Shown here one piece after another: positions 5,215 through 57,195 of a stretch of 64,000 nucleotides of DNA. This stretch comes from an uncultured Methanosarcinales archaeon (GTDB lineage Archaea > Nanobdellota > Nanobdellia > Woesearchaeales > GW2011-AR9), in the NCBI GenBank assembly GCA_964552945.1, contig CAZKIP010000007.1, positions 745 to 64,744 of the forward strand, read 5' to 3'. The notes below the pieces were generated by a model. It ran no database searches, had not been told where the DNA came from, and saw nothing but the letters and a program-made list of their open reading frames with translations. The stretch's first letter is position 1. Each line of letters opens with the position of its first letter. The position numbers and the translations under genes were made by a program.

Positions 5215-5798
5215 TTTATCAATTCAAACATTTTTGTTGTTATTATTTTTTTATTCAATTGGGGATTTTCAATTATAAAATCTACGGAATATTCTCCTGC
5301 CAAAGCTTCTTCAGATAAAGTAAAGTAATCTGCGAAAACTACCACTTCACTTTCCATCATGCTACTACCCGAGAATTGGTGAGAATTTTTTTGATCTGCT
5401 TCAAAGATGGTAAATCCTCTAGGATCTTTAACACGATAATTTCTTTTTAATGATATGACATTGCCAGAAACACTACTCTCAACAGCAAACCACAAATAAA
5501 CTCTCTCTCCTTCTGCAAAAGATTCTTTTTCTTGATCACAATACAAATCTTCATCAACAAAATCACAGAAAAGTAAATCTCTCAAAACTAAAGATCCCGC
5601 TCTATCAAAAGGAATAAATTCCGTATTCAAAATTTTCTGCTGACTTTCTCCATCTTTAACATTAATTACTTCCGTCTTTACTAAAATTAAAATAACCGAA
5701 CTTGTTAAAACTACAATAATTAAAAATATCAGTAAGGAAACGAACACTCCACCTTTTTTATTCATTTTATTTAGCTTCATTTTGGACAACACTTCCAA
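5211..5798 (-). CDS. Membrane-anchored hypothetical protein (N-terminal signal anchor, extracellular domain).
   Basis: One N-terminal TM helix (VFVSLLIFLIIVVLTSSVILILV). There is a 4-bp ATGA overlap with the downstream gene and a 22-bp overlap with the upstream giant gene, which implies co-transcription. Confidence 0.5.
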   Translation of the reverse strand: MEVLSKMKLNKMNKKGGVFVSLLIFLIIVVLTSSVILILVKTEVINVKDGESQQKILNTEFIPFDRAGSLVLRDLLFCDFVDEDLYCDQEKESFAEGERVYLWFAVESSVSGNVISLKRNYRVKDPRGFTIFEADQKNSHQFSGSSMMESEVVVFADYFTLSEEALAGEYSVDFIIENPQLNKKIITTKMFELIK

Positions 5799-8700
5799 TC
5801 GCTCGGATTTTTAATACCTCTTTTTTTCAAAATTGAATCTTGACATTGTAAGGACACACATTTATCTGCTTTAGTTTGATCAAAGGTAGACAACTTAGTA
5901 TCCTGACAACTAAAATCTTCATACTGTGGCAAAGTTTCGCATTTTGTTAAAGCACTTGTTTCCCCACAATACTTTTGGAATCTCTTATCAACATCATTAT
6001 CAATCAAACAAAGATACTTCTTTATTTTCTTATATTCAGTTGTTCCAGTTACATATGCAGGATATCCTCCTTCAGCAAATCCTGGTTCAAAGAATCTACC
6101 AAGCAAACTAATAATTTCTCCTCTGAAATTATCCTTCCCTTGCATCACATAGCTAGAAATCCAATAATATAAAGCACTAGCATCATCTAAATTATTCTCT
6201 TTTAATTTAACAATGGCTTCCGCTTTATTTTGAACTAACTGATAATTATCATTCATAAAATCGTCATGCATCCCTATGGCTACAGCAACTTCTTCTTTTT
6301 GAAGTTGTAATTTTATTTTCTGAGTATGAGAGTTTTTCCCAAAGGAACTTTTTGGAACTAAATTGATTGCAGTAAAACAATTATCTCCTGCTCCAGGTTG
6401 TAATAACTCCACTTTAACATTTAAAGAGCCCACATTACCTTTTGAAGAACTCGTCGAAGGAACAGTTTTATATTCACATTTCCCGTTACTCTTCTCAGGA
6501 TTACCTAGAACTTTCTTAAATCTAAACTCACCTAATGTAAAAACAGCAGCATCTATATCGCTCTTAGTTAAATCAATGTCTCCGCCATAAGATAAATAGC
6601 CATTCTTATTAAGATCATACTTCTTACTATTTCCACCAGGAATAACAGAAACATCATTATTACCAACTCTTAGTTGATATTTGTTATTGCTCTGTTTCTC
6701 AAAAAAGAAAGGCATGTTCACACTTTTTGAAGTTGCTTCATCTGGCCAAGCAACAATCTCCAGTTCTTTCCCATTTCCACCACATCCTGCATCACTCACA
6801 GTATCTCTTCTAACAATCGTACCTACTTTACCACCACTGATCATGTCTGGAGTAACTCTTCCTAAACTTAAACTTGGTGCAACCGTACCTGTGTAACCTT
6901 CTCCCAACAAAACAATTTGTTTATTCTTACCTTTGTTATCGGTAACTTTCAAACAAGCTTTATCATTACCTATTCTAACATAAGGTTTCACAACTATTTC
7001 ATTATTTAAAACAAAAAGGTTAGGGGTCTTACAATCAACAAATTCTTCAGTTTCTTTGTTATAACAACGTAAGAAAGGATGTTCTAAATAAGATTGTCCT
7101 CCTTGAAATAATGTACTTAATTCAGGACAGAGATATCTTCCTGTAGCAAAGTCAACTTGACATTGTGCAAATTCCTTACCTGCTTTATGACTTAAAGGGA
7201 AATAAAATAACCCTCCCTGTGCAGTTTGATATCCTTCATCAAAACACTCTTTAGGGTCTTGACCTGATTCTAAAAATAATTCTAATTTTACATGATCATA
7301 TCTGAAATGACTGCTGATTTGTAGAGGATTTTTGTAAGGAATATCATATGGTTGTAATCTAGTAAGTGATCCAAATTTAGAGCCACTTTGAATTATTTTT
7401 TCCTTATCACCCTGGAATGGAGTATTCTGGTTACTTGCTTTCAAACAATCACATCCTTGTCCATCACAAGATTGATCTATTCCTTTATTTCCTAAATCTT
7501 CTACACCAATACATTTTAAGCTAGTTCTGTATCCTCTTAACCGACATCCTGGAATAATATCCATCCCTAAATTGTAAGTAAATTGAGGTAAACCTTGAAT
7601 TGGGTCAAATGAAGTGAATTCCCTGTTAGCAATTAGAGGAAGAACACTAGTTTTCATAGGTCTTCCATAAGCAGAATCTGTAAGGAAATCAAAATTTGAT
7701 GGAAAGTCATAACCTAAAGCAAACAAACACATTGATTGAGTAAATCCTTCAGAACCAACTCTAAATTGTTGTTCAGCAACAGCACCATAATCATCTTTCA
7801 AATCGCTGGTTGAACCTTTCAACCCTTCTGGGATCCCTTGTCTAAGAGCTTTAAAAAGTTGAGTTGCGTCTCCATCCGTAGGGTCTTTAAGTTCGGGTAC
7901 ATCATCAAATGTAACAGGTGAACATTGGTTTGTTAAAAGAGAAATTCCACTATAGATCCAACTACAAACTGTGTTGGTGAAAAAAGTTTTACAAGAACCA
8001 GCATCCTGAATTGCTGAATTCTTAGCTGCTAAAATACAATTTCTAAATTGAATTAATCCATTCTGTAACAGAGTTAATTGATCTTGGATTCTAGGTAAAC
8101 ACATGGTTTGCCAAGCTGGAACATAATCTCTAGGGTTAATTCTAGCAATTTTTTTATCTCCCACAAAATCGGAGATGTGATCTAAACCAAAAGCGGCGGT
8201 GAAATCTCTTCCACCATAATATCTCCATTCAGGATAGTAAGTTCCTTTATTTCTGCCAGATTCTCTATAAATAGAAGATTGTCGGTAACTCCATTCTTCA
8301 ACAACTTCATTTTCTTTTTTCAAAGCAACCCTAACACTTTTACTTTTCTTTAAAGGAACGTCTTGTTTCTCACATGCACATTGATATTTATCTCCAGTAT
8401 TTTCTTCCACAAAACAATCTTTCGTATAACCAGCAGTGAAAGTTGAAGCATCAACTTTTTTACCAACACTACTTCTTAATTTAAGACCTGAAAGGCTTTT
8501 CTCTTCCTTATAACATCCACCACCAGTCAAATAAGCACCAGATTTTTCATCCAATCTATAACCATCTGAAACTGCACGGAAACCAGATTTAGCTTTACAA
8601 ACATTTTTACAACTTTTCTCTTCAGCAACACAAGCAGGCCCGTTTAGATCTCCTTTAAGAGCCAAAACTTTGGATTTAGTTTGTCCAGGATTTAAGACAG

Positions 8701-11254
8701 GATTCAATCTCCAGATTCCTCTGTTATCTAATTTAGTCACATCCTTTGCACAACTTGGATTAGGATCATTCTCAGTACACCTATAGAAAAAAGTTCCCTC
8801 TGCATCTCTCCAACAAGTAAAAGAACTTTCTTTTTGTTCTTTCTTAATTCTTAAAAGTTCAGATGCTTGAGGATTCTTCTCAAGAATAGTTTGACAGTTT
8901 TCTACAGGAGTTAAATAACGACAAAGGCTTGAAGCAACACATTGCTGTTGCTCTAAAATAACTTTTTGTACCTCAGCTTCATCTTTATCTTCGGTCCATC
9001 TTGCAGGAACGGCTCGACAAAAGAAACGATCACAAACTGCTTTGTATAAAGTATCTAACTTTTGTTCAGATTCCCATGCTGCAGCAGTATCTGGACATTT
9101 TTTAGATAATGATTTCAATTCAAAATTGACTGGCAGATTTGCATTAGGGTTTCCAATTAATTTTTTCCAAGCGGCTATTGTTGAATCTAAATAAAGATCT
9201 AGCTGGCCATTTCCAGTAGGACATTTGTCATCCTTTTTTCTACTAGTCCAAGGTTCATACAAAGAAACTACAACTCTTCTTACTTTAAAAACAGCCCTAG
9301 TTAACCATGAGGAATAACAACTTACTCCTGTCCAAAATACAACTGGTTCAAGAATACTATTAATTCTTTCAATTTGATGAATTGTATAATTTACCGCAGC
9401 CATTCCTTCATTTGCTAAAAAGTCCGGAACCAAAGCAGAACTTTCTATAGGAACATCAACAAAATAACCAAGATCTTTACAATCAACTTGAGTTTTACTT
9501 TTACTCCAAGCATTGTTACCTTCTCTTTCTTGGTAAGTTACCAAAATTTTCAAAGGGATTTTTAATTGTCTTTTTTCAAAATCTTTCCAAAAATCCTCAT
9601 CTATTTCAGAAAAGTCTGAAGCCCTCAAAAGTTTAGTAGAAAGATAATACATTGTCTTATCGGGTTTCACAGACTGTGCATTTAAACTTCCGCTGGGAAT
9701 TAACCTACAACCAGCACTATAATCATCCTTTTCAGCATTAGCTTTAGTACAAGCTGGTTGGAACCTTACATCAATTATTCTATATCCTTGTTCATAAGCA
9801 TTTTTCTCTGCATCAAATTTTCCAATTGCCCCACCATTATAAGTAATGTTATAAACCGCTTGAATCGATTCTCTACCTTCTTCCATCAATTGGGGATTTA
9901 ATTTGAAAGGTTGAGGAGGAAATTGTGGTGGAGAAAAAACATTGAACGCAAAATCTGGTGAAGAACAACTATTAATGTAAACCGTTTTAGTTGCATGACC
10001 TACCTTACCCGTCTTATCTTCAGCCAAAATGTAAACCCTATATTGAAGTCTTTTTGCCGCCGATATTTCGTCCAACTTTGGAATTAATATTTCTTGCAAA
10101 CCTGTAGGAACTTCTCTAGGATGAAGATCTTTCAAAGTAGTTAACGAAAAAGCGCTGAATTCAAATTCTTCAAAGACAAATTTTCCTTCACTATCTGCCA
10201 CTACTTTTATAATTGCTTTTTTGAAATTCAAACGATATTCATCTACACTTGGTCTAAAAACATAAAGGTAAACTTCTGCTCCTGGTTCAGTGGTACCTTC
10301 AATTCCTGTTTCTGCCCTTCCTTCATAATATTCATTTCCTTTAGTAAATTGGAAAGTTACAGAAGGTTTTTCTGTATCAACATTTAGCGTTCTAGTTTCT
10401 TTACTTTCCCATCCGGCCAAATCTGTAGCAATTACTTCTAAAACATTGTCCCCTTCATTCAAATTTATTTTTTGGTCAATTATCGTTCCAGTAAATTCAT
10501 TCACAGAACTATTACTTAAAATTATTTCGATGGTACTATTCTCAGAAACAGTACCTTTCAAAGTAAAACTTTTATCTTCAATAAAATCAGGTATTTTTGA
10601 GATAGTTATTTTTGGTTTTATAGTGTCGGTAAAAGTAATACCTTCCACAGAAGCGGTGTTTCCAGAGAGGTCAGAAGATTCAATTCTGATATTATTATGT
10701 TGATTAGCTAAAAGAAAAATATTTTCAAAAATAAAGGAAGCATCTTTCTCCTCTCCAACAATTTTTGCGGTTACACTATCAACCTGTAAATCGTTAACAA
10801 AAATCTTAACATCTGCATTTGCTTCAGTTTTCCCAGATAAAGCCATTTTGTTTCCTTTGTTAGAAGAAGGAATTACAACTTCAAGAGTTGGAGGAGTTAA
10901 ATCAGGAGCCAGAGTTGTAAAGGAGTAGAACTCACCATTATTGTCATCAACTAAACTATTACTTTCAACTGAATAAAAATAAGTTGTTTCGGATTTTAAA
11001 TTGGAAATTAAAAATTTATGTGAAGAAAGTTGGGTAGAATCTCCCTTAGTAATCAAATTGTCTTTACTCTCACCATATCTAACAAAACTATCGGCAGGTT
11101 CATCGGTAATCCAGCTAATTGAAGCAGTATTATCAGTTACATCTGATTTAACATCAGAGATTTGTAAAGCAGATACCAAAGAGATATTCAAAATAAGCAG
11201 AACTAGTAAAATCAAAAAAAGGTTCGCTTTTTTATTTGTCATCTTGTTTATCAT
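5777..11254 (-). CDS. Giant (1825-aa) secreted cysteine-rich protein with an N-terminal fibronectin-III-like domain. Candidate adhesin or surface-interaction protein.
   Basis: Signal peptide MINKMTNKKANLFLILLVLLILNISLVSA. The FN3-like segment is ...SDVTDNTASISWITDEPADSFVRYGESKD...TTYFYSVES. There are more than 60 Cys throughout the extracellular body. The ORF is uninterrupted over 5.5 kb in an AT-rich genome. Confidence 0.6.
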   Translation of the reverse strand: MINKMTNKKANLFLILLVLLILNISLVSALQISDVKSDVTDNTASISWITDEPADSFVRYGESKDNLITKGDSTQLSSHKFLISNLKSETTYFYSVESNSLVDDNNGEFYSFTTLAPDLTPPTLEVVIPSSNKGNKMALSGKTEANADVKIFVNDLQVDSVTAKIVGEEKDASFIFENIFLLANQHNNIRIESSDLSGNTASVEGITFTDTIKPKITISKIPDFIEDKSFTLKGTVSENSTIEIILSNSSVNEFTGTIIDQKINLNEGDNVLEVIATDLAGWESKETRTLNVDTEKPSVTFQFTKGNEYYEGRAETGIEGTTEPGAEVYLYVFRPSVDEYRLNFKKAIIKVVADSEGKFVFEEFEFSAFSLTTLKDLHPREVPTGLQEILIPKLDEISAAKRLQYRVYILAEDKTGKVGHATKTVYINSCSSPDFAFNVFSPPQFPPQPFKLNPQLMEEGRESIQAVYNITYNGGAIGKFDAEKNAYEQGYRIIDVRFQPACTKANAEKDDYSAGCRLIPSGSLNAQSVKPDKTMYYLSTKLLRASDFSEIDEDFWKDFEKRQLKIPLKILVTYQEREGNNAWSKSKTQVDCKDLGYFVDVPIESSALVPDFLANEGMAAVNYTIHQIERINSILEPVVFWTGVSCYSSWLTRAVFKVRRVVVSLYEPWTSRKKDDKCPTGNGQLDLYLDSTIAAWKKLIGNPNANLPVNFELKSLSKKCPDTAAAWESEQKLDTLYKAVCDRFFCRAVPARWTEDKDEAEVQKVILEQQQCVASSLCRYLTPVENCQTILEKNPQASELLRIKKEQKESSFTCWRDAEGTFFYRCTENDPNPSCAKDVTKLDNRGIWRLNPVLNPGQTKSKVLALKGDLNGPACVAEEKSCKNVCKAKSGFRAVSDGYRLDEKSGAYLTGGGCYKEEKSLSGLKLRSSVGKKVDASTFTAGYTKDCFVEENTGDKYQCACEKQDVPLKKSKSVRVALKKENEVVEEWSYRQSSIYRESGRNKGTYYPEWRYYGGRDFTAAFGLDHISDFVGDKKIARINPRDYVPAWQTMCLPRIQDQLTLLQNGLIQFRNCILAAKNSAIQDAGSCKTFFTNTVCSWIYSGISLLTNQCSPVTFDDVPELKDPTDGDATQLFKALRQGIPEGLKGSTSDLKDDYGAVAEQQFRVGSEGFTQSMCLFALGYDFPSNFDFLTDSAYGRPMKTSVLPLIANREFTSFDPIQGLPQFTYNLGMDIIPGCRLRGYRTSLKCIGVEDLGNKGIDQSCDGQGCDCLKASNQNTPFQGDKEKIIQSGSKFGSLTRLQPYDIPYKNPLQISSHFRYDHVKLELFLESGQDPKECFDEGYQTAQGGLFYFPLSHKAGKEFAQCQVDFATGRYLCPELSTLFQGGQSYLEHPFLRCYNKETEEFVDCKTPNLFVLNNEIVVKPYVRIGNDKACLKVTDNKGKNKQIVLLGEGYTGTVAPSLSLGRVTPDMISGGKVGTIVRRDTVSDAGCGGNGKELEIVAWPDEATSKSVNMPFFFEKQSNNKYQLRVGNNDVSVIPGGNSKKYDLNKNGYLSYGGDIDLTKSDIDAAVFTLGEFRFKKVLGNPEKSNGKCEYKTVPSTSSSKGNVGSLNVKVELLQPGAGDNCFTAINLVPKSSFGKNSHTQKIKLQLQKEEVAVAIGMHDDFMNDNYQLVQNKAEAIVKLKENNLDDASALYYWISSYVMQGKDNFRGEIISLLGRFFEPGFAEGGYPAYVTGTTEYKKIKKYLCLIDNDVDKRFQKYCGETSALTKCETLPQYEDFSCQDTKLSTFDQTKADKCVSLQCQDSILKKRGIKNPSDWKCCPK

Positions 11255-14578: not shown

Positions 14579-14586
14579 AAATTAGG

Positions 14587-14705
14587 CTTAATCCAAAATA
14601 ACACAATTTAGTATACTGGCGCCAATTGAGGCACACGGGGTCTCGTCAAAGAGCCCGTAATCGTGCCGTGCCCCAGTATACTAATGTCCTCTATTCTGGA
14701 TGAAG
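14587..14705. repeat. Copy 1 of a conserved GC-rich nested-hairpin element. Either a candidate structured ncRNA or a MITE-like palindromic repeat.
   Basis: Outer inverted repeat CTTAATCCAAAATA / TATTCTGGATGAAG. Inner stem GTATACTGG (14611-14619) / CCAGTATAC (14674-14682). The interior is GC-rich with GGCAC/GTGCC and ACGGG/CCCGT pairs. The element sits in the intergenic region 3' of the PNP gene. Confidence 0.5.
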
Positions 14706-14713
14706 CCCAAAAA

Positions 14714-16416: not shown

Positions 16417-16420
16417 TCGG

Positions 16421-16539
16421 GCTTCTTCCAGAATAACATACCTTTGTATACTGGCGCCCTGACGAAGTCGAGCCGATGAGCGAAGCTCATGATAACGGCG
16501 TGCTCCAGTATACAAATTCACTATATTCTGGATGAAGCA
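16421..16539. repeat. Copy 2 of the nested-hairpin element. It exactly fills the gap between two convergent genes.
   Basis: Outer inverted repeat CTTCTTCCAGAATA / TATTCTGGATGAAG. Inner stem GTATACTGG / CCAGTATAC. Internal pairs CGCC/GGCG. Apical stem ATGAGC-GAA-GCTCAT. About 54% GC in a roughly 33% GC genome. Confidence 0.55.
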
Positions 16540-28976: not shown

Positions 28977-31900
28977 ATGAAAACAAGAAAAATTTCAATT
29001 ATTCTGTTTGTAATAATTGCTGTTTTATTAACTGCAAAGGCAGCCCTAGGTGCTGTTGTAATTAATGAAGTAATGCCAGATCCTGGCGCATCGTCTGACT
29101 CAGATGGTGAATATATCGAACTTTACAATGATGGAGCATCTACCACCAATATTGAAGGATGGGAAATCTCCGATGCAAATTCTGCACACACTATTGCTAA
29201 TGGTTCTCCCTTGGAAATTGCTGCTGGAGAATTCCTAGTTCTATGTAGTAATGATGATAAGGCAGCAAATGGAGACATTGGTTGTGCATACGAATACGCT
29301 TCCACTATCAGCTTAGTTAATGCTGGAGATACAATTGAATTAAAAGACACAAGTGCTACTTCAATTGATAAAGTAGTTTATACTGCTGCTTCATTTCCTT
29401 TCACAGCTGGAACTTCTATGGAATTAAAACATCATTCTTTAAATAACACCAATGCTTCAAATTGGAGAGCTTCAACCTCTACCATGAGTAATGGTGACAA
29501 AGGAAGTCCAGGTAAGAAAAATAATCATGCACCAACATTTGATGTTTCTGATGATACAATTCTTGAAGACGCTGGTTTGAAGAAGTATGACTTACATGCC
29601 TCAGTAAGTGATCCCGAAGACTCAAAAAGCGACTTGAAGTTCGTTCTTGATTCGCAATCAAATACCTCACTTGTATCTTGTAGCATCAATGCTACAGATG
29701 GACACAATTTAGAATGTAATACTAAAAAGGACCAATCCGGCGAGTCTACCTTAAACTTAACTGTAACAGATACTTATGGAGATTCAACCAAGGATTCCTT
29801 TAAGATAACTGTAAGCGCAGTTAATGATAAACCTGTAATCACTAAAGCTGACAATTCTACAGCTACAGAAGGTCTTGCTTTTACAAAAACAATTACCGTA
29901 ACTGATGTTGATAATAACCAAAGTGAACTTGGAATTAATCTTGACAAATCTACTGTTGATGGCAAAAGTTTCACAAGCCTTGGCTGGACAAGTGCCGGCC
30001 TAGAAATTACTGGAACTCCTAAAGCCTCCGGTGATATGAAAGTTAGTGTAGTTGCAAAAGATAAAGCAGCAGATTCAGATGCTAAAGAATTTACCTTATC
30101 TGTAAAGCCTGCTCTTGAAATTAACTCCCTTACAATTGATGAAGAATTGTGGGTTGGAGAAGAAATTAATGCATCTCCTGGAGAAGGATTTTCAGTTGAT
30201 ATTGGTTTCATAAATAATTATAATAAAGTACTTGGCCATGTAAAAACAGAAGCAAAAGTTAGTGTAACTGGCTTTGAAAACATGCCTTACAAAGGTGAAT
30301 GTGCTGGAGTAGGTTGTAACAAAGGTTACTGGGCTTTAGAAGAAGGAGAAAGTGCAGATGACTCTTTCACTTTCCAAGTTCCATATTCTGTTAGTGCAGA
30401 TACTTTTGACTTAACCATAAGTGTTAGTTATGATAATTTCTGGAGTAAACTATTCCCTTGGTGGGTTTCAGGTTACCTCCATGAACAGAAAATAACTTTC
30501 AAAGTTGAAAAGAAAGAAGCTGAAGTTCACCTAAATAGTGCAGAGTTAAGTGATGAAGTACTTACTTGTGCCAGAGAACCAACTCTTGATTTAGATCTTG
30601 TAAACACTGGAAAGAACGCTGTTTCTTCAGAAGTTTTAATTTTCGATCAAAAACCTAAAGAAGGATCTTTTGACAAAAAAACAGGAACTTTCAAGGAATT
30701 TGCAAGTAAACCAGAACTTAATTTATCAATTCTTATTGATAAAGATGGTAAATTCTCACAAGGATTATCCTTTGAAGATTCTACCAATGGTAAACATAAC
30801 CTCTATGTTTACATTGTAAATCCTTACTTTAATAGTGATGAAAAATTCATTGGTGATTCAGCAGAACTTGAGTTTGAAGTAGATGATTGTTTGAATGTTG
30901 AAGCTATCGAAGAAGAACTTAAGACAAATAAAGATTCATTGAGTTCCACATCAGTTGATTTATTTGAAACTGATGAAGATGATGAATACATTTACATCTA
31001 TGAAGATATGGATTATGAATCTGTATTAAAATTTGAAATAGATGATCAAGATGATGAAATTATCAAATGCTCAATTGATCCAGTAACTGCAAAATTGACC
31101 TGTGCTCCACCCATCTTATTAATGGCTGGAACATCACTTCTTGAAATAATAATTGAACAAGGAAGTTCAGATTTTACTGAAGAAGTAGAAGTAGTTGTTG
31201 CAAACACTCTGGAAGTAACTAAAGTTCTTGTTGATGCAGAAGAAATAAGTGAAAGCGCAGAAACTAAAGGCACCAACCCTATGGAAGAATTTAGTGTTGA
31301 ATTAACTGTTAAGAACCATTTAGGCCATGCAGTTACCGGTGTTTCCGCAACTTTATCTTCAAATCTTTTCAGTAAAGATTTAGAAAGTAAAAGCAAGAAC
31401 ATTGCAGCTGATCAAAGTGAAACTTTAACTTTTAAAACTACTCTTCCAGAGAATACAGTTGCTGGTAAATACCCAGTAAGCATTTCAATCTCAGGAAAGG
31501 ATTTCAAAGATAACACTATTACTCAAAAAGAGTCATTTACTTTTGATAAAGTTGTTGAACAAGAATCTGCTGATTTAAAAATTTCCAAAGTTACTTTAGA
31601 CAACAAGGAAGTTACCTGTAAACAGGAAACGACTGTAACTGTTGACTTAGTTAATCTTGGAAACAATGATGAAGATGATTTAGTATTAAGTGTTAAAGGT
31701 GGAAAAGAAACTTTTTCAACTGAAGAAAACGATGTAGATGAGATTCTTAAGAATGGAGGAACTCTTTCACATGTTTTCAAATTACCAACTTCAAACTTAT
31801 CATCTGGAACAAACGATCTTACTTTAGAAGTTAGCTACCGAAATGGTGCAGCTTCTGTAAGCAAGAAAATTGATTCAATTGAAAAGAAAAGTTGTATCAA

Positions 31901-33821
31901 GAAAGCTGAACCATCAATTGCTGATGGCAATGGTTGGGTTATTTCAGATGGCCAAGAAATGAATGGTTTTGAAGTTACCTTAGCTGAGAAAGGTTATGAC
32001 AACTTAATCAAATGGTTTGTTAATGGAGTTGTTGATAAAGCTCAAACAGGAACCGAATACATCTTCAAACAAGATGAAGTTGGAGAGTATAAAGTTAATG
32101 CAGAAATTAATGGTGAAAAAACAGTTGTTTGGGAAGTAACCGTTACCGATGTACCTTTATCAGTAGAATTAACAACTAACATTGATGAAGATGCTACACA
32201 TGAAGATTTAGAAGTCTTTGAAGATTTCACAGTTGAAAATAAATATGGTAAAATTGTTTTTAATGAGCCTGTAGATTTAACTGAAATTTTAGATCTTGAT
32301 CAGTACATTAAAATTGAAGCTGATGGAGTAAGTGTTGACACATCTGAAGATGGTGCTCCTGAGCTAAATGTAGCTGCAACTGTTTACTTAAAAAAATCAT
32401 TCAATAACCCAATGGTTTTAATCTCAACAAATATGAAAAAGGAAGATTTCAAAAGATGTCCTGCTGAAGATTGTAAGATTAAAAGTAAATCCGGAAAACC
32501 AGTTACATTTACAGTTGAAGGATTTAGTAAAGCCAAAGTTGTAGAAAACGTAGCAGCAACACCTCAAGTAAGTAAGGAACTTTTATTTGACAATGTTGAA
32601 AGAGGAAAGAACTACACTCTTGATTTCACAGTTAAGAATTTAGGTTCACACGACTCTTTAACAATTGATGATGTAAAGTTAGCTGGTGTAAAAACCGGAT
32701 ACGGACTGAAGTTAACTGCAGTAAGTTTTCCAAAAACTTTAGAAGCTGGAAAAGACGTTGCATTGAAATTATCTGTCCTTTCACCTAAAGAAGAGGCATC
32801 TGGCAAAAAAGAACTTGCTAAATTGCAAATCTTCTATGATGGAAAAATTGCGCCTTTAGAAAAAGCGGTTTCATTCCAAGTAAAGGATTATCTGAGCATC
32901 GATAACTTTGAAGTTAACGGAGACGATAACGGAGATCTTTCTGTTAAAGATTTGAACGAGATTGAATTCGAAGTTAAGAATAGTTATACAGAAGACATGG
33001 AAGATGTTGAAATAACTGTAGAAATTCTTGACGTTGATGGAGACGATCTTGAAGAAGAAGTCGAAGTAGACATTGATAAGAACGATGAAGAAAAAGTAAA
33101 AGTTGAATTTGATCTTTCAAGTGAAGATTTAGATGAAGAAGAATACACAGTAAAGATTACTATCAATGCTGAAGCTAAAGATGATAGTGATCATGACTTT
33201 GAAACAACTAAAACTGTGGACTTAGATCTAAATAAGCACGAAGTAATCATTGAAAGTTTAACTTTCAGCCAAGATACTTTACAATGTCCTGGACAGAATC
33301 ACTTACTAGTTGACTTGAAAAACGTTGGTAAAAGTGATGAAGACGATATTGAGGTTAAAGTTAAGAACAGTGCTCTGGACTTAAGTTTAAGCGATTCAAA
33401 TATCGAATTGGACAAATTTAGCAGAAACGATAACGAATACAGGTCTACTTTCAGCATAACTCTTAACGAAGCTGATAAGACAAGTTATCCACTAACTGTT
33501 GAATTGTACAGAGATGGTAAAAAGGAAGAAAGCAAAACTGCAACTTTAAAATTAAAAGATTGTAAAAAGCTGGAAACTTCCTCAACAACTCAGTCCCAAA
33601 ACCAACTTACCAATGATAACTTGGCGAAGCAATTGCAAGCTCAATTACAGCAGCAATTACAAGCTCAACAAGTACAGCAAGTACAACAGCAGCAAGTTCC
33701 AGTTGTAAAAACATCATTTAGAGATAGTAGAACCTACATGTTATTGTTGGGAGTGCTAATCTTCTTGGTGTTCTTTGCAATGGTTTTAGCAGCAGCAGTT
33801 TTGTTGGTTAAGAAGAAATAA
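28977..33821 (+). CDS. Giant (1614-aa) acidic surface protein. It has a signal peptide, a lamin-tail domain (LTD), multiple CARDB/Ig-like domains, a Gln-rich coiled-coil stalk and a C-terminal TM anchor.
   Basis: The LTD signature is VVINEVMPDPGAS..DGEYIELYN...IEGWEISD. The recurring CARDB-like motifs are DLVNTGKNAVSSEV, DLVNLGNNDEDDLVL and DLKNVGKSDEDDIEV. The stalk is QLQAQLQQQLQAQQVQQVQQQQ, followed by the TM LLLGVLIFLVFFAMVLAAAVLLV. Confidence 0.65.
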   Translation: MKTRKISIILFVIIAVLLTAKAALGAVVINEVMPDPGASSDSDGEYIELYNDGASTTNIEGWEISDANSAHTIANGSPLEIAAGEFLVLCSNDDKAANGDIGCAYEYASTISLVNAGDTIELKDTSATSIDKVVYTAASFPFTAGTSMELKHHSLNNTNASNWRASTSTMSNGDKGSPGKKNNHAPTFDVSDDTILEDAGLKKYDLHASVSDPEDSKSDLKFVLDSQSNTSLVSCSINATDGHNLECNTKKDQSGESTLNLTVTDTYGDSTKDSFKITVSAVNDKPVITKADNSTATEGLAFTKTITVTDVDNNQSELGINLDKSTVDGKSFTSLGWTSAGLEITGTPKASGDMKVSVVAKDKAADSDAKEFTLSVKPALEINSLTIDEELWVGEEINASPGEGFSVDIGFINNYNKVLGHVKTEAKVSVTGFENMPYKGECAGVGCNKGYWALEEGESADDSFTFQVPYSVSADTFDLTISVSYDNFWSKLFPWWVSGYLHEQKITFKVEKKEAEVHLNSAELSDEVLTCAREPTLDLDLVNTGKNAVSSEVLIFDQKPKEGSFDKKTGTFKEFASKPELNLSILIDKDGKFSQGLSFEDSTNGKHNLYVYIVNPYFNSDEKFIGDSAELEFEVDDCLNVEAIEEELKTNKDSLSSTSVDLFETDEDDEYIYIYEDMDYESVLKFEIDDQDDEIIKCSIDPVTAKLTCAPPILLMAGTSLLEIIIEQGSSDFTEEVEVVVANTLEVTKVLVDAEEISESAETKGTNPMEEFSVELTVKNHLGHAVTGVSATLSSNLFSKDLESKSKNIAADQSETLTFKTTLPENTVAGKYPVSISISGKDFKDNTITQKESFTFDKVVEQESADLKISKVTLDNKEVTCKQETTVTVDLVNLGNNDEDDLVLSVKGGKETFSTEENDVDEILKNGGTLSHVFKLPTSNLSSGTNDLTLEVSYRNGAASVSKKIDSIEKKSCIKKAEPSIADGNGWVISDGQEMNGFEVTLAEKGYDNLIKWFVNGVVDKAQTGTEYIFKQDEVGEYKVNAEINGEKTVVWEVTVTDVPLSVELTTNIDEDATHEDLEVFEDFTVENKYGKIVFNEPVDLTEILDLDQYIKIEADGVSVDTSEDGAPELNVAATVYLKKSFNNPMVLISTNMKKEDFKRCPAEDCKIKSKSGKPVTFTVEGFSKAKVVENVAATPQVSKELLFDNVERGKNYTLDFTVKNLGSHDSLTIDDVKLAGVKTGYGLKLTAVSFPKTLEAGKDVALKLSVLSPKEEASGKKELAKLQIFYDGKIAPLEKAVSFQVKDYLSIDNFEVNGDDNGDLSVKDLNEIEFEVKNSYTEDMEDVEITVEILDVDGDDLEEEVEVDIDKNDEEKVKVEFDLSSEDLDEEEYTVKITINAEAKDDSDHDFETTKTVDLDLNKHEVIIESLTFSQDTLQCPGQNHLLVDLKNVGKSDEDDIEVKVKNSALDLSLSDSNIELDKFSRNDNEYRSTFSITLNEADKTSYPLTVELYRDGKKEESKTATLKLKDCKKLETSSTTQSQNQLTNDNLAKQLQAQLQQQLQAQQVQQVQQQQVPVVKTSFRDSRTYMLLLGVLIFLVFFAMVLAAAVLLVKKK

Positions 33822-33872
33822 ATTTTTTTATTTTTTATCTTTTTTTTATTTTTTATTTTTTAAAGCGTTGTT
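33822..33872. terminator. Oligo-T tract between convergent genes. Likely an archaeal intrinsic terminator for both.
   Basis: TTTTTTTATTTTTTATCTTTTTTTTATTTTTTATTTTTT runs immediately after the stop at 33821. Confidence 0.4.
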
Positions 33873-34442
33873 AAAAAGTTCTATTTTATCCCAATTGTTT
33901 TGTAATTTCTCATTGATAATATCTTTTAACCATCCCTTATCTCCAGAAAAAACAAGTTCTTTATTTTTGTAGAAAGGCATTTCTAAGGTATGGCTATCCC
34001 TAATTTCAATAATAATCTTGTTGCTAATGGACAATATTGAAGATTTCTTATAAAATGTTCTTGCTAATTCCAACAAAGATTTTGCTGAATCCAAATCTTG
34101 GCAAGCAATGTGGATGATAAATCCTTCATACCTTAACCAGATAGTATCGTTTGTATCGTTTATATCGTTTATACCCTTTGTTTTGTTTGTTTTATTTATT
34201 TCTTCAACTAAATCTAAGAAACTTTCTTCGATGAAATCGTGACTTACTCTTATCCATTCAGTCTCATTTTTTTTCCCACTACCTTTCCAGAAATAAACCC
34301 TTCCAGAACAAGAAGAAGTAGTATAATAATTGTCTAATTTGTTAATTGTTTCAATAATGCTTAAAGCATGCTTATCAACACTTCCTTTCTTACTTTTATC
34401 CAACTTTTCTAGGAAAGTTTTTTTTTGATTATTAAAAGGCAT
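33846..34442 (-). CDS. taw3: tRNA wybutosine-synthesizing protein 3 homolog (Taw3/TYW3).
   Basis: The SSCSGR motif (TTSSCSGRVYFW) is characteristic of TYW3. The size is 198 aa, and it contains an internal low-complexity insert. Confidence 0.65.
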   Translation of the reverse strand: MPFNNQKKTFLEKLDKSKKGSVDKHALSIIETINKLDNYYTTSSCSGRVYFWKGSGKKNETEWIRVSHDFIEESFLDLVEEINKTNKTKGINDINDTNDTIWLRYEGFIIHIACQDLDSAKSLLELARTFYKKSSILSISNKIIIEIRDSHTLEMPFYKNKELVFSGDKGWLKDIINEKLQNNWDKIELFNNALKNKK

Positions 34443-34495: not shown

Positions 34496-35230
34496 ATGAG
34501 ATCCGTCAAAAAAATCCTTATAGATTTGAACACTAACAAAAAATATTACATTAAAGAGCTAGATGACAATTTTCATACCAGTAATGGGGTTATTTCTAAA
34601 AAAGACATAAAAGGGAAGGAAACCTTAGTAGTTTCTGATAAGAATAAGAAGTTTGTTTTGTTAGAACCCTCTTTTATAGATTACTGGGAAAAGTTGCACA
34701 GAGGCCCTCAAATCATGAATCAAAAGGACATTGGAATGATTCTTTCAAAGACGGGGGTAAATAAGAATTCTAAAGTCGTCGATGCAGGTGGCGGTTCTGG
34801 AAGTTTATGCTTGTCTTTAGCAAATGTATGTAAAGAAGTTTTTGTTTATGAAATAAATCCTGAACATTTAGATGTAATCCAGAAAAATGTTAAATTGTTT
34901 GGTGTGAAAAATTTACACTTGAAACAAGAAAATGTCTATAAAGGAATTGCAGAGAAAGAACTTGATTTGATTACTTTAGACTTACCAGAACCATGGCAAG
35001 TTACTGAGCATGCTTCTATCTCTCTTAAAACAGGTGGTTTCTTAGTAGTCTACCTACCAAATTTAGGTCAAATGAAAATGTTTATCGATTCTTGCAAAGG
35101 TTCTAAGATAAGAGTTTTGGAAACTTTAGAACTTCTTGAAAGAAAATGGAAGATTCATGACAAGATTATGCGTCCTGAATTTGACATGCTTGGACACACC
35201 GGTTTTCTTACTTTCTGCAGAAAGTTATGA
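34496..35230 (+). CDS. trmI: tRNA (adenine57/58-N1)-methyltransferase TrmI (Gcd14 family).
   Basis: PQIMNQKDIGMIL, the SAM-binding DAGGGSGSL and the DLPEPW motif match the TrmI/GCD14 family. Confidence 0.75.
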   Translation: MRSVKKILIDLNTNKKYYIKELDDNFHTSNGVISKKDIKGKETLVVSDKNKKFVLLEPSFIDYWEKLHRGPQIMNQKDIGMILSKTGVNKNSKVVDAGGGSGSLCLSLANVCKEVFVYEINPEHLDVIQKNVKLFGVKNLHLKQENVYKGIAEKELDLITLDLPEPWQVTEHASISLKTGGFLVVYLPNLGQMKMFIDSCKGSKIRVLETLELLERKWKIHDKIMRPEFDMLGHTGFLTFCRKL

Positions 35231-41788: not shown

Positions 41789-41892
41789 AAAATTCAAAAT
41801 TCCTTATTTTTTACATTTTTTCTATAAACAAGCTAATAAACACCATATTCTTAGAAATGTTTTTAAAGGGGCAGTAATCTTACCTAATCTGG

Positions 41893-41986
41893 CGGGCCTA
41901 TGGTCTAGTGGCTATGACAGTGCCCTTACACGGCATTGATCCCCGGTTCGAGATTTATTTCAAACGAAATTCCGGGTGGGCCCACC
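41893..41986 (+). tRNA. tRNA-Val (anticodon UAC) carrying an 18-nt insertion in the T-loop. Candidate non-canonical intron.
   Basis: Acceptor GGGCCTA / TGGGCCC+A+CCA. D-stem GTC/GAC. Anticodon stem GTGCC/GGCAT with loop CTTACAC. Variable loop TGATC. T-stem CCCGG/CCGGG. The T-loop region is TTCGA-GATTTATTTCAAACGAAA-TT (25 nt instead of 7). The insert itself forms ATTTC-AAAC-GAAAT. Confidence 0.7.
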
Positions 41987-42000
41987 ATTTTTACATCAAA

Positions 42001-42243
42001 ATGAACGCAACAATTCTAACAAAACTTAAACCAACCGATTTAATCCCTTTTTATGGTTGGCACGATTACAATAGAAGAACCAGTAGTATCGAAGACAACT
42101 TATTTGACGTGGAAAAAACGTCAGGAACAGACTATCTTGATTCAATGCGAAGACTCCAAGAAAATCGCTTAATAACTAAAGCAGTTACCTTAGCCCCAAT
42201 TATTGGAGCTGCAGCATACTTTATTACTAAATATACTGTTTAA
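42001..42243 (+). CDS. Small protein with a C-terminal TM helix. The start was moved downstream of the tRNA.
   Basis: ATG at 42001 in the frame of track ORF 41908..42243. The upstream part of that ORF overlaps the tRNA, so it was rejected. Confidence 0.3.
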   Translation: MNATILTKLKPTDLIPFYGWHDYNRRTSSIEDNLFDVEKTSGTDYLDSMRRLQENRLITKAVTLAPIIGAAAYFITKYTV

Positions 42244-53839: not shown

Positions 53840-55726
53840 TTAATCAAAATAAATTCTGATAATTCCTTTAACTTTCTGAACTCTTCTAACCATTTCTTTA
53901 AGATGTTCCAGATTTCTAGGGATTACTTTGAAAGAGCATTTAGCGTCAACACCAAGCAACTTAGCTTTCGCTTCCTTAACTTCAAATCCTGCTTGAGCAA
54001 TTGTATGTAAAAGGTCTGCTAAAAGACCACTTCTTTCTCCGGCTTCAACATGGAAAGAGATTCTTTGTGTGTAATTCTCTTTCCATTTAACCGGAATTAA
54101 CTTATCTTCTTTCTTTAAAGCTTCTTTACAATTATCTCTGTGAACAGAAATTATTCTTCTTTTTGTTATTAAACCAACAATGTTTTCTCCTGGCAAAGCT
54201 TGACAACATTTGGCCAAAGTACAAACTGCCCGAGGATATTCTTCAGATGAAACTAAGACTCCTTTTTCTTCTTTTACAACTGGTTTAAATAGACGGAAAT
54301 GGAAAGAAGGTAAATTTTCGTAATCTTTCAAAACTTTTCTTATTCTTTGTCTAGCTTTTGAAGATGAAACTATTTTAATCCAACTTCTTCTTGGTCTTTG
54401 TTTTTTATGAGTAATAATTTCTACAACGTCCCCATTCACAAGTTTATGTCTTAACGGAACAAATTTTCCATTAACCTTCCCTCCAACACATTTGCTTCCA
54501 ATTTCTTCATGAACTGCATAAGCAAAATCAAGAACTGTAGATTCAACAGGTAATTCTTTCAAATCTCCGAGAGGAGTATAACAATAAATTTTATCACCAA
54601 AAACATCTACTTGGACCGATTCCAAAAATTCATTATCTTTTTTCTTTAAATCAAGAACCTCTTTCATCCAAGCAATTTTTTTCTCAAATATTTTGTCAGA
54701 TTTGAAATCCTTATATCTCCAATGTGCAGCAATTCCTTCTTCAGCAAACTCCTCCATCTCTGGAGTCCTTATTTGAACTTCGATTACCCACCCATTGTTT
54801 AATTTAACTCCAGTATGCAATGATCGATAAAAATTAGGTTTTGGATTAGCGATGTAATCTTTCAATCTACCTTCAATTGGTTCAAACTTCTCATGTAACA
54901 ATCCTAAAAAAGTGTAACAATCTTTTTCGGTAGGAACAATTACCCTTATCCCTAACAAATCAAATAAATCATTTAACCTTTTCTTTTTACGAACTACTTT
55001 TTTGTAAATACTGTAGATATGTTTTGGTCTCCCTTTAATCTTTAAAAGATCTAATTTTCCCCTAGACATTTCCTTTAAAAGTTCAATGACCCTTTCTATT
55101 TTATGTTCTCTTTCTTCTCTTGTTTCTTCCAGGAACTCTTGTATTTCAACATGTTTTTTTGGATTGATAATATAAAAAGCACAATCTTCCAACTGGACTC
55201 TTATTCTTTCAACCCCTAACCTATAAGCAAGAGGTGCATATACTTCCAAAACTTCAGAAGCCAACCTTTCTCTTTCATCAGGAGGAAAAACATGGACAGA
55301 ATTTAAGTTATCTAATTTATTTGCCAATTTGATAAAAATAACTCTTAAATCATGCAAGGCTGTAACCATAATTCTTCTTAAGGCATCTCCAGGGACATTC
55401 ACATTGTTAATCTTAATATGTCTTAATGTATTGACCTCATTCAATAAAGAAACAATGTTCTTCCCAAATTTATCTTCTATCTCCTTTTCAGGAATTTTAT
55501 CCAATAAACCATGTAATAATCCTGCCAAAACAGTTTCTGGGTCTGCTTTATTTTCAACTAGAATTTTTCCAACACGAATATTATGTTCAGAAAATAAATC
55601 GCCAGCTAGACGTTTCTCCTTCCCCAACTGTTCTTCTACATAATTAACAGCCTTTTCAAAAAGAAGAAGGTCTTCTTCAGTATAACCCTTGCCTCTACAC
55701 AGCAAAAGAAAAGAATTTCCTTCCAT
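53840..55726 (-). CDS. Long RelA/SpoT-homolog (RSH) (p)ppGpp synthetase. The domain order is degenerate HD, synthetase, TGS, CC/ZFD, ACT.
   Basis: The synthetase motifs are GRPKHIYSIYKKV, DLLGIRVIV, YRSLHTGV and EVQIRT. The TGS is YCYTPLGDLKELPVESTVLDFAYAVH..GD. The zinc-finger domain is CTLAKCCQALPGENIVGLIT..ISVHRDNC. The C-terminal domain is ACT. In the HD motif position, LLHGLLDK has Asp replaced by Gly. Confidence 0.85.
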   Translation of the reverse strand: MEGNSFLLLCRGKGYTEEDLLLFEKAVNYVEEQLGKEKRLAGDLFSEHNIRVGKILVENKADPETVLAGLLHGLLDKIPEKEIEDKFGKNIVSLLNEVNTLRHIKINNVNVPGDALRRIMVTALHDLRVIFIKLANKLDNLNSVHVFPPDERERLASEVLEVYAPLAYRLGVERIRVQLEDCAFYIINPKKHVEIQEFLEETREEREHKIERVIELLKEMSRGKLDLLKIKGRPKHIYSIYKKVVRKKKRLNDLFDLLGIRVIVPTEKDCYTFLGLLHEKFEPIEGRLKDYIANPKPNFYRSLHTGVKLNNGWVIEVQIRTPEMEEFAEEGIAAHWRYKDFKSDKIFEKKIAWMKEVLDLKKKDNEFLESVQVDVFGDKIYCYTPLGDLKELPVESTVLDFAYAVHEEIGSKCVGGKVNGKFVPLRHKLVNGDVVEIITHKKQRPRRSWIKIVSSSKARQRIRKVLKDYENLPSFHFRLFKPVVKEEKGVLVSSEEYPRAVCTLAKCCQALPGENIVGLITKRRIISVHRDNCKEALKKEDKLIPVKWKENYTQRISFHVEAGERSGLLADLLHTIAQAGFEVKEAKAKLLGVDAKCSFKVIPRNLEHLKEMVRRVQKVKGIIRIYFD

Positions 55727-57082: not shown

Positions 57083-57189
57083 ATCCGGAATAACACTTTT
57101 TTGTATAATGTTGCCCTGACGTAGTCGAGCCGATGGGCGTAAGCCCATAATGACGGCGTGCACCAGTATACAAAAACATCCATTCCAGA
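57083..57189. repeat. Copy 3 of the nested-hairpin element.
   Basis: Outer repeat ATCCGGAATA / CATTCCAGAT. Inner stem GTATAATG.../CCAGTATAC. The apical stem is ATGGGC-GTAA-GCCCAT, a compensatory double change relative to copy 2. Confidence 0.55.
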
Positions 57190-57195
57190 TATTTC

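Follow-up and report, generated by a model that had tools for sequence, protein, structure and literature searches.

Results

A tRNA-Val(UAC) gene with an enlarged T-loop in a Woesearchaeota locus

The window analysed here, a whole stretch of 64 kb of DNA with a GC content of ~33%, carries a gene for tRNA-Val(UAC) that is flanked by archaeal genes encoding TrmB, a dUTPase, an AMP-phosphorylase-like protein, ScpA, LonB and S8e; genes for TFB, L10e, GatD, TYW3 and TrmI lie at a greater distance in the window. Proteins from MAGs labelled Woesearchaeota, Nanoarchaeota or Nanoarchaeia (DPANN) share no more than 85% identity with the LonB encoded here, and the host, as judged from these genes, is a Woesearchaeota (DPANN) archaeon. 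Many of the closest LonB loci (e.g. L007 and L010–L013) belong to TPA assemblies titled "uncultured Methanosarcinales archaeon", yet they cluster with Woesearchaeota/Nanoarchaeota MAGs at 80–84% LonB identity, and the Methanosarcinales label of these records is probably wrong.

The tRNA gene was read from the sequence at 41894–41987, so that the coordinates of the initial annotation (41893–41986) were shifted by one base. Its elements and flanks are the following.

41860–41867, plus strand: TATA-like box TTTTTAAA, a putative archaeal promoter element lying 34 to 27 nt before tRNA position 1
41894–41987, plus strand: tRNA-Val(UAC) gene including the encoded CCA
41894–41900 and 41977–41983, plus strand: acceptor stem, GGGCCTA/TGGGCCC, all paired
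plus strand: D arm, GTCT-AGTGGCTA-TGAC, read from the sequence
plus strand: anticodon arm, GTGCC/CTTACAC/GGCAT, with the valine anticodon TAC at 41927–41929
plus strand: variable loop, TGATC
41942–41946 and 41972–41976, plus strand: T-stem, CCCGG/CCGGG
41947–41971, plus strand: 25 nt separating the T-stem strands, TTCGAGATTTATTTCAAACGAAATT (7 nt is normal)
41984, plus strand: discriminator A73
41985–41987, plus strand: encoded CCA
41988–41992, plus strand: T-run TTTTT directly 3′ of the CCA, likely an archaeal terminator by its sequence and place

All elements of a class I tRNA are thus found within 41894–41984, and the sole anomaly is the 25 nt between the T-stem strands. The canonical acceptor, anticodon and T-stem sequences read as they had initially been described, and the 25-nt T-loop proposed at that stage was confirmed. 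Exon 1 has the same or nearly the same sequence as in orthologs. An A/T box of similar type and at a similar distance lies upstream of most tRNA-Val(UAC) orthologs examined, and the TATA-like box would serve as the promoter; T-rich tracts follow most of these orthologs, some of which encode the CCA while others do not. The tRNA is overlapped by a 111-aa ORF with a GTG start (41908–42243, plus strand), the 5′ part of which was rejected as spurious; the JGI gene call begins at ATG 42001 and gives an 80-aa ORF without a Pfam family.

The locus is present in several public assemblies; the insert is identical in four independent ones (JGI 3300007504, ENA ERZ23498905, Logan SRR8062318 and SRR9166051), and it is therefore no assembly artefact. 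Three contigs of the same locus from three independent assemblies (L002, L003 and L004; window 41898- and 41923-) stop inside the tRNA gene, at tRNA nucleotide 5 or 30. These contig ends may reflect strain-level variation, for example an intron polymorphism, or a conserved tRNA sequence that breaks the assembly graph.

Removal of 18 nt restores a canonical tRNA

The unspliced gene escaped two standard searches: ARAGORN found no tRNA in the entire 64-kb window, and Rfam gave no match to the gene at the gathering score. In E-value mode, RF00005 matched the 5′ half alone (41894–41944) with 19.9 bits, short of the gathering threshold of 29 bits, as would be expected with an intron in the T-loop; the equivalent body of intron-less orthologs scores 63–65 bits on the same model. 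When 18 nt within the loop were deleted, ARAGORN called tRNA-Val(tac). Removal of 41953–41970 specifically yields a 73-nt cloverleaf of a canonical tRNA-Val(tac).

For an unbiased scan, every BHB-like site in the window was spliced (n = 54,520 candidates, both strands) and ARAGORN was run on each product. The sole tRNA recovered was tRNA-Val(UAC), with an intron at exactly 41953–41970; a second match turned out to be the same gene in a spuriously long form. No further hidden tRNAs were found in the window on either strand by this procedure. Other GC-rich islands, considered as candidate hidden tRNAs, are coding sequence or MITE-like hairpins.

Since both ARAGORN and Rfam miss the gene, a genome annotated with them would seem to be without tRNA-Val(UAC). 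Such an apparent absence in DPANN MAGs would lead to wrong conclusions on translation capacity, completeness and host dependence. In archaeal mode, tRNAscan-SE 2.0 looks for such introns by default, but with BHB models whose training covered Crenarchaeota, Euryarchaeota and Thaumarchaeota (PMC8450103). The intron mode of ARAGORN mis-calls the tRNA-Val genes of relatives with a D-loop intron (L006, L064 and L026) as tRNA-Gly(acc), tRNA-Ala(cgc) and tRNA-Ile(aat), each with a false anticodon-loop intron, so that DPANN MAGs can end up with wrong isotypes.

The intron boundaries coincide with a predicted relaxed bulge-helix-loop motif

The BHB motif was folded, a check suggested in the initial annotation. 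Minimum free energy (MFE) folds of the whole precursor and of the isolated T arm both extend the T-stem by a 4-bp UUCG/CGAA helix between exon and intron (pair probability 0.91–0.98), and both leave an unpaired 3-nt AUU between this central helix and the 3′ strand of the T-stem. The exons, the intron and the parts of the motif are as follows.

41894–41952, plus strand: exon 1 (tRNA positions 1–59), from the acceptor 5′ strand to T-loop nucleotides 54–59, UUCGAG
41947–41950, plus strand: exon strand of the BHB central helix, U54 U55 C56 G57 (UUCG), paired with 41965–41968 in the MFE folds
41951–41953, plus strand: 5′ bulge AGA, predicted 5′ cut after G59, between 41952 and 41953
41953–41970, plus strand: intron, 18 nt, AUUUAUUUCAAACGAAAU, at tRNA position 59/60, from the scan, the deletion and the alignment with L015
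41954–41956 and 41962–41964, plus strand: possible weak lower helix h′, UUU/AAA, closing the loop AUUUC
41965–41968, plus strand: intron strand of the BHB central helix, CGAA, from MFE folds and pair probabilities
41969–41971, plus strand: 3′ bulge AUU, predicted 3′ cut between 41970 and 41971, with U 41971 becoming U60
41971–41987, plus strand: exon 2, comprising U60, the T-stem 3′ strand, the acceptor 3′ strand, A73 and CCA

In BHB motifs, cleavage occurs after the second nucleotide of each bulge. As an internal check, this rule gives the canonical 37/38 introns of relatives correctly (e.g. that of L015). Applied to the window gene, it places the end of exon 1 at UUCGAG (41952), the intron at 41953–41970 and the start of exon 2 at U60 (41971). 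The predicted mature T-loop, as read from these boundaries, would be UUCGAGU, and splicing at 59/60 would join ...GGUUCGAG to UCCGGG, while an alternative register would join ...UUCGA to UUCCGGG. The initial proposal that removing 18 nt restores a 7-nt loop held, but BHB geometry and the TTCGAGT of intron-less orthologs give the loop as UUCGAGU and not as UUCGA..UU.

The lower helix h′ lies directly against the central helix, as needed for a strict BHB; its pair probability is ~0.007 at 37 °C, and the motif is therefore better called a relaxed bulge-helix-loop (hBH/BHL) than a strict hBHBh′. Against the strict two-bulge definition, the 3′ AUU bulge, closed by the T-stem, is clear, whereas the 5′ AGA bulge hinges on the UUU/AAA pairing. 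Without h′, the 5′ cleavage site sits in a loop rather than in a well-formed bulge, and an EndA of strict specificity might cut it poorly. A self-splicing group I or group II intron was not found: the insert has no Rfam match in gathering or E-value mode and is 18 nt long, while the core of such introns would need hundreds of nucleotides.

Because the lower helix is negligible, the EndA of the organism is inferred to tolerate relaxed substrates. A phmmer search with the M. jannaschii EndA, whose sequence was verified against PDB 1a79, found no EndA in the window or the fetched loci, and Pfam annotation gave no EndA, RtcB or archease in the window. A marginal phmmer match in L018 was rejected, as the protein is a GNAT acetyltransferase. 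Two tRNA modification genes lie 7 kb from the tRNA, for a GCD14/TrmI-type tRNA methyltransferase (34496–35230, plus strand) and the wybutosine-pathway methyltransferase TYW3 (33846–34442, minus strand). The GCD14/TrmI family makes m1A58 in the T-loop; A58 is one nucleotide off the splice site, and the order in which modification and splicing take place could be worth attention.

Relatives carry unrelated introns with the same motif at 59/60

Orthologs were collected from 80 LonB-anchored genome loci by insert-independent criteria and by one metagenome scan in which the insert was left free in the pattern, with introns longer than ~40 nt being under-sampled in the metagenome set. Besides the window gene, 16 distinct Woesearchaeota tRNA-Val(UAC) genes from genomes and metagenomes carry an insert of 17–91 nt at the same site, with lengths of 17, 17, 21, 23, 24, 27, 27, 28, 31, 37, 38, 42, 50, 87 and 91 nt. 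The insert sequences are unrelated save for the segment constrained to pair with UUCG. Although the searches did not demand it, a UUCG/(C/U/A)GAA-like helix was present in 16/16 relatives (4/4 pairs in 13 and 3/4 pairs in 3), as was a 3-nt bulge ending in U (16/16). In the longer introns, h′ corresponds to a stable hairpin: the MFE structure is a perfect strict hBHBh′ in L088 and L091, and the strict hBHBh′ lies within ~1 kcal/mol of the MFE under BHB constraint in L089, L093 and L094.

Four intron-less orthologs (L047, L052, L054 and L090) have the T-loop TTCGAGT, which equals the predicted spliced product; among intron-less orthologs generally the loop is TTCGAGT or TTCGAAT and never TTCGATT. 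In 21 distinct spliced sequences, 99.8% of the cloverleaf cells were paired, compared with 28–52% in slid-partner controls, a value inflated by the partial choice of ortholog sets for paired stems; the covariation, 9 pairs with compensatory changes, is not affected by that choice. The 59/60 site is also used in other isotypes of relatives. A tRNA-Ala(UGC) gene in L058 (minus strand, intron rc 160–192) has a 33-nt intron there, and with A at position 57 its helix is UUCA/UGAA, a compensatory change; a tRNA-Gln(CUG) gene in L059 (minus strand, intron rc 5653–5698) has an intron of ~46 nt. The tally of T-loop 59/60 introns thereby gains tRNA-Val of Woesearchaeota, plus tRNA-Ala and tRNA-Gln in relatives.

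Intron position changes on constant exons

Syntenic tRNA-Val orthologs also carry introns elsewhere, at 20/21 in the D-loop (L006, L026 and L064) or at the canonical 37/38 (L011, L015, L021 and L037). In L015, where the T-loop is uninterrupted, a 19-nt intron sits at 37/38. Nucleotide 38 is the sole difference between the mature sequences of L015 and the window, and their alignment shows two clean reciprocal indels, the 18-nt one being exactly at 41953–41970. A similar exchange was seen between two MAG loci, L006:3701-3816 and L009:504-620, whose exons are identical and whose flanks share >90% identity. Their reciprocal indels are likewise clean and correspond to a 42-nt D-loop intron (20/21) in L006 and an unrelated 42-nt T-loop intron (59/60) in L009. 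Moreover, one exon sequence is common to genes with five different 59/60 introns. These position shifts on identical exons indicate a far more rapid turnover of introns than of exons in this lineage.

Clearly related introns were found only between L006 and L064 (both 20/21) and between L019 and L097 (both 59/60), and the window intron resembles other introns solely in the constrained ACGAA segment. Among the introns compared, no homology between introns at different positions, a sign of transposition, was found. Among orthologs with identical exons, the intron lies at 20/21, 37/38 or 59/60 or is lacking altogether. It is, in our estimate, as likely as not that the tRNA-Val(UAC) gene, which in Woesearchaeota precedes scpA-lonB, is a hotspot of ongoing BHB-intron turnover.

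Other features of the window

Three intergenic hairpin elements of ~120 nt were found.

14585–14707: first hairpin element
16420–16539: second hairpin element
~57083–57190: third hairpin element

They consist of nested inverted repeats, the outer being GGCTTC(W)TCCAGAATA / TATTCTGGATGAAGC and the inner GTATACTGG / CCAGTATAC, with a GC-rich apical domain, and their fold z-scores are −4 to −7. The 9-mer CCAGTATAC occurs 5 times against 0.18 expected. Compensatory change separates the copies at 16.4k and 57.1k (AUGAGC/GCUCAU versus AUGGGC/GCCCAU). Each copy is bordered by direct repeats, which are CAAAAATTA (9 bp, perfect) for the first, AGTT(T)AATC for the second and CTTATTC for the third. The elements matched no Rfam family and were absent from 100 fetched loci. 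Their sequence features suggest MITE-like mobile elements that may also carry a structured RNA.

A long RelA/SpoT homolog (53840–55726, minus strand, 628 aa) has HD, RelA_SpoT, TGS and ACT domains in a bacterial-type architecture, and its gene may have been horizontally acquired. Two giant ORFs (5777–11254, minus strand, 1825 aa; 28977–33821, plus strand, 1614 aa) contain small recognisable domains only, those of the 1614-aa ORF being a lamin-tail domain and a Nup98-type S59 autopeptidase domain; both are probably surface proteins of a kind common in DPANN.

Discussion

Taken together, the locus at 41894–41987 is best read as a functional tRNA-Val(UAC) gene whose T-loop is interrupted at position 59/60 by an 18-nt archaeal intron of the protein-spliced type, a reading to which we assign a probability of roughly 90%, with splicing being predicted. 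Structure, orthologs and literature all agree with the initial proposal of a non-canonical archaeal T-loop intron with a bulge-helix-bulge processing motif. The gene would be transcribed from its own TATA-type promoter, and in the precursor U54–G57 would be held in a 4-bp helix with the intron CGAA, stacked on the T-stem. The AUU (3′) and AGA (5′) bulges would present the two scissile bonds in what is effectively a relaxed bulge-helix-loop, which the archaeal splicing endonuclease EndA, presumably one of relaxed specificity, would cut after G59 and before U60. An RtcB-type ligase would then join the exons; with the T-loop becoming UUCGAGU, its tertiary contacts with the D-loop and the T-loop modifications could form.

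This mechanism class is well established, and the kind of intron is already known, with a 59/60 relaxed-BHB precedent in ARMAN-2 and disrupted tRNA genes across DPANN. The pre-tRNA-Cys(GCA) of ARMAN-2 (Ca. Micrarchaeum acidiphilum) has a 13-nt 59/60 intron with a relaxed hBH/BHL motif that is cleaved in vitro by its epsilon2 EndA (Fujishima et al. 2011, PMC3239211), and the tRNA-Pro of the same organism has introns at 53/54 and 59/60 (PMC3239211). The window gene resembles the former in its DPANN host, its 59/60 T-loop site and its very short intron (18 nt here, 13 nt in ARMAN-2), as well as in its upper helix, a 4-bp central helix, one well-formed bulge and another cleavage site in a loop. 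It differs in isotype and phylum, Val and Woesearchaeota here but Cys and Micrarchaeota there, and in that the intron here is predicted from sequence whereas ARMAN-2 EndA cleavage was observed in vitro.

Non-canonical and multiple BHB introns have been described in tRNAs of Thermoproteales and other Crenarchaeota/Thaumarchaeota (Sugahara 2008; Fujishima 2010; reviewed in PMC4033280 and PMC4090602), with reports from Thermoproteales of variable intron positions and of intron "transposition" (PMC4090602). As predicted here, these are protein-spliced BHB introns away from 37/38, the T-loop included, whose position varies between close relatives, which is read there as gain or transposition. The TACK systems have an (alpha-beta)2 EndA with a Crenarchaea-specific loop, whereas the organism here is a marine DPANN archaeon with a small, AT-rich genome. 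With the canonical 37/38 BHB intron, the window intron shares the predicted order of helix, 3-nt bulge, 4-bp helix and 3-nt bulge and the predicted cuts after the second bulge nucleotide; it differs in lying in the T-loop, in a central helix that uses the universally conserved U54–G57 and not the anticodon loop, and in a lower helix that is nearly absent.

As for the enzyme, alpha4 and alpha2 EndA need the strict 3-4-3 motif, and broader enzymes take relaxed motifs (PMC3239211). A DPANN survey that included a Woesearchaeote associated an alpha4 EndA with an "L3" insert with many disrupted tRNA genes (Kaneta et al. 2018, PMC5829648), and the tRNA sets of such DPANN genomes are often incompletely predicted (PMC5829648). 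That work suggests an EndA of the alpha4 type with the L3 loop for several DPANN lineages (PMC5829648).

Three other readings were weighed. The same intron could be cut in another register, at 57/58 or 58/59 with a UUCGAUU product, or be recognized through the internal hairpin AUUUC/GAAAU. ARAGORN also accepts a tRNA-Val with the loop TTCGATT when 18 nt are taken out after loop nucleotide 4 or 5, and the hairpin, which the initial annotation had pointed out, is possible on paper at −7.2 kcal/mol. However, its pair probability is <0.01 against that of 0.91–0.98 for UUCG/CGAA, the conserved helix with which it competes, and the relatives all keep the helix between exon and intron together with a 3-nt bulge that ends in U, with no internal hairpin there; the TTCGATT loop does not occur among the intron-less orthologs, and the scan under the BHB rule picks 41953–41970. 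We regard a different register as improbable. Slightly less probable still is that the gene is decaying or non-functional, or that the tRNA keeps a 25-nt T-loop with a neutral insert. Standard tRNA finders do reject the gene and the lower BHB helix is weak, but the four stems are perfect, and the CCA, the promoter-like box and the T-run are intact. In the 16 relatives, the cleavage motif accompanies every insert at this site although the inserts are unrelated in sequence and length, and neutral insertions would not keep such a motif; the exons, moreover, stay identical while the introns change. Were the insert retained, U54–G57 would be paired in the unspliced molecule, which would abolish the universal T-loop fold.

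That the insert is an artefact or the scar of a mobile element, be it an assembly error, an att-site remnant or a MITE insertion, is the least credible of the three and can practically be set aside. tRNA 3′ halves are common integration sites, MITE-like repeats occur elsewhere in the window, and several assemblies break inside the tRNA-Val gene. Against an artefact stand the four independent assemblies with the same insert, and against a mobile scar the fact that no duplicated tRNA 3′ segment, target-site duplication or integrase was found nearby; 18 nt is also too short for a mobile element, and the insert does not resemble the MITE-like repeats of the window.

The predicted 59/60 intron of the tRNA-Val(UAC) gene adds a member to a known class, in a lineage in which intron position changes rapidly on unchanged exons, which bears on archaeal tRNA intron gain and loss. 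If the hotspot pattern reflects recent gain and loss in natural populations, these lineages would offer a tractable system for how archaeal tRNA introns move. Under the same condition, they would show whether relaxed BHL substrates, the 18-nt intron among them, can be processed by an alpha4-type EndA that has the L3 loop of DPANN.
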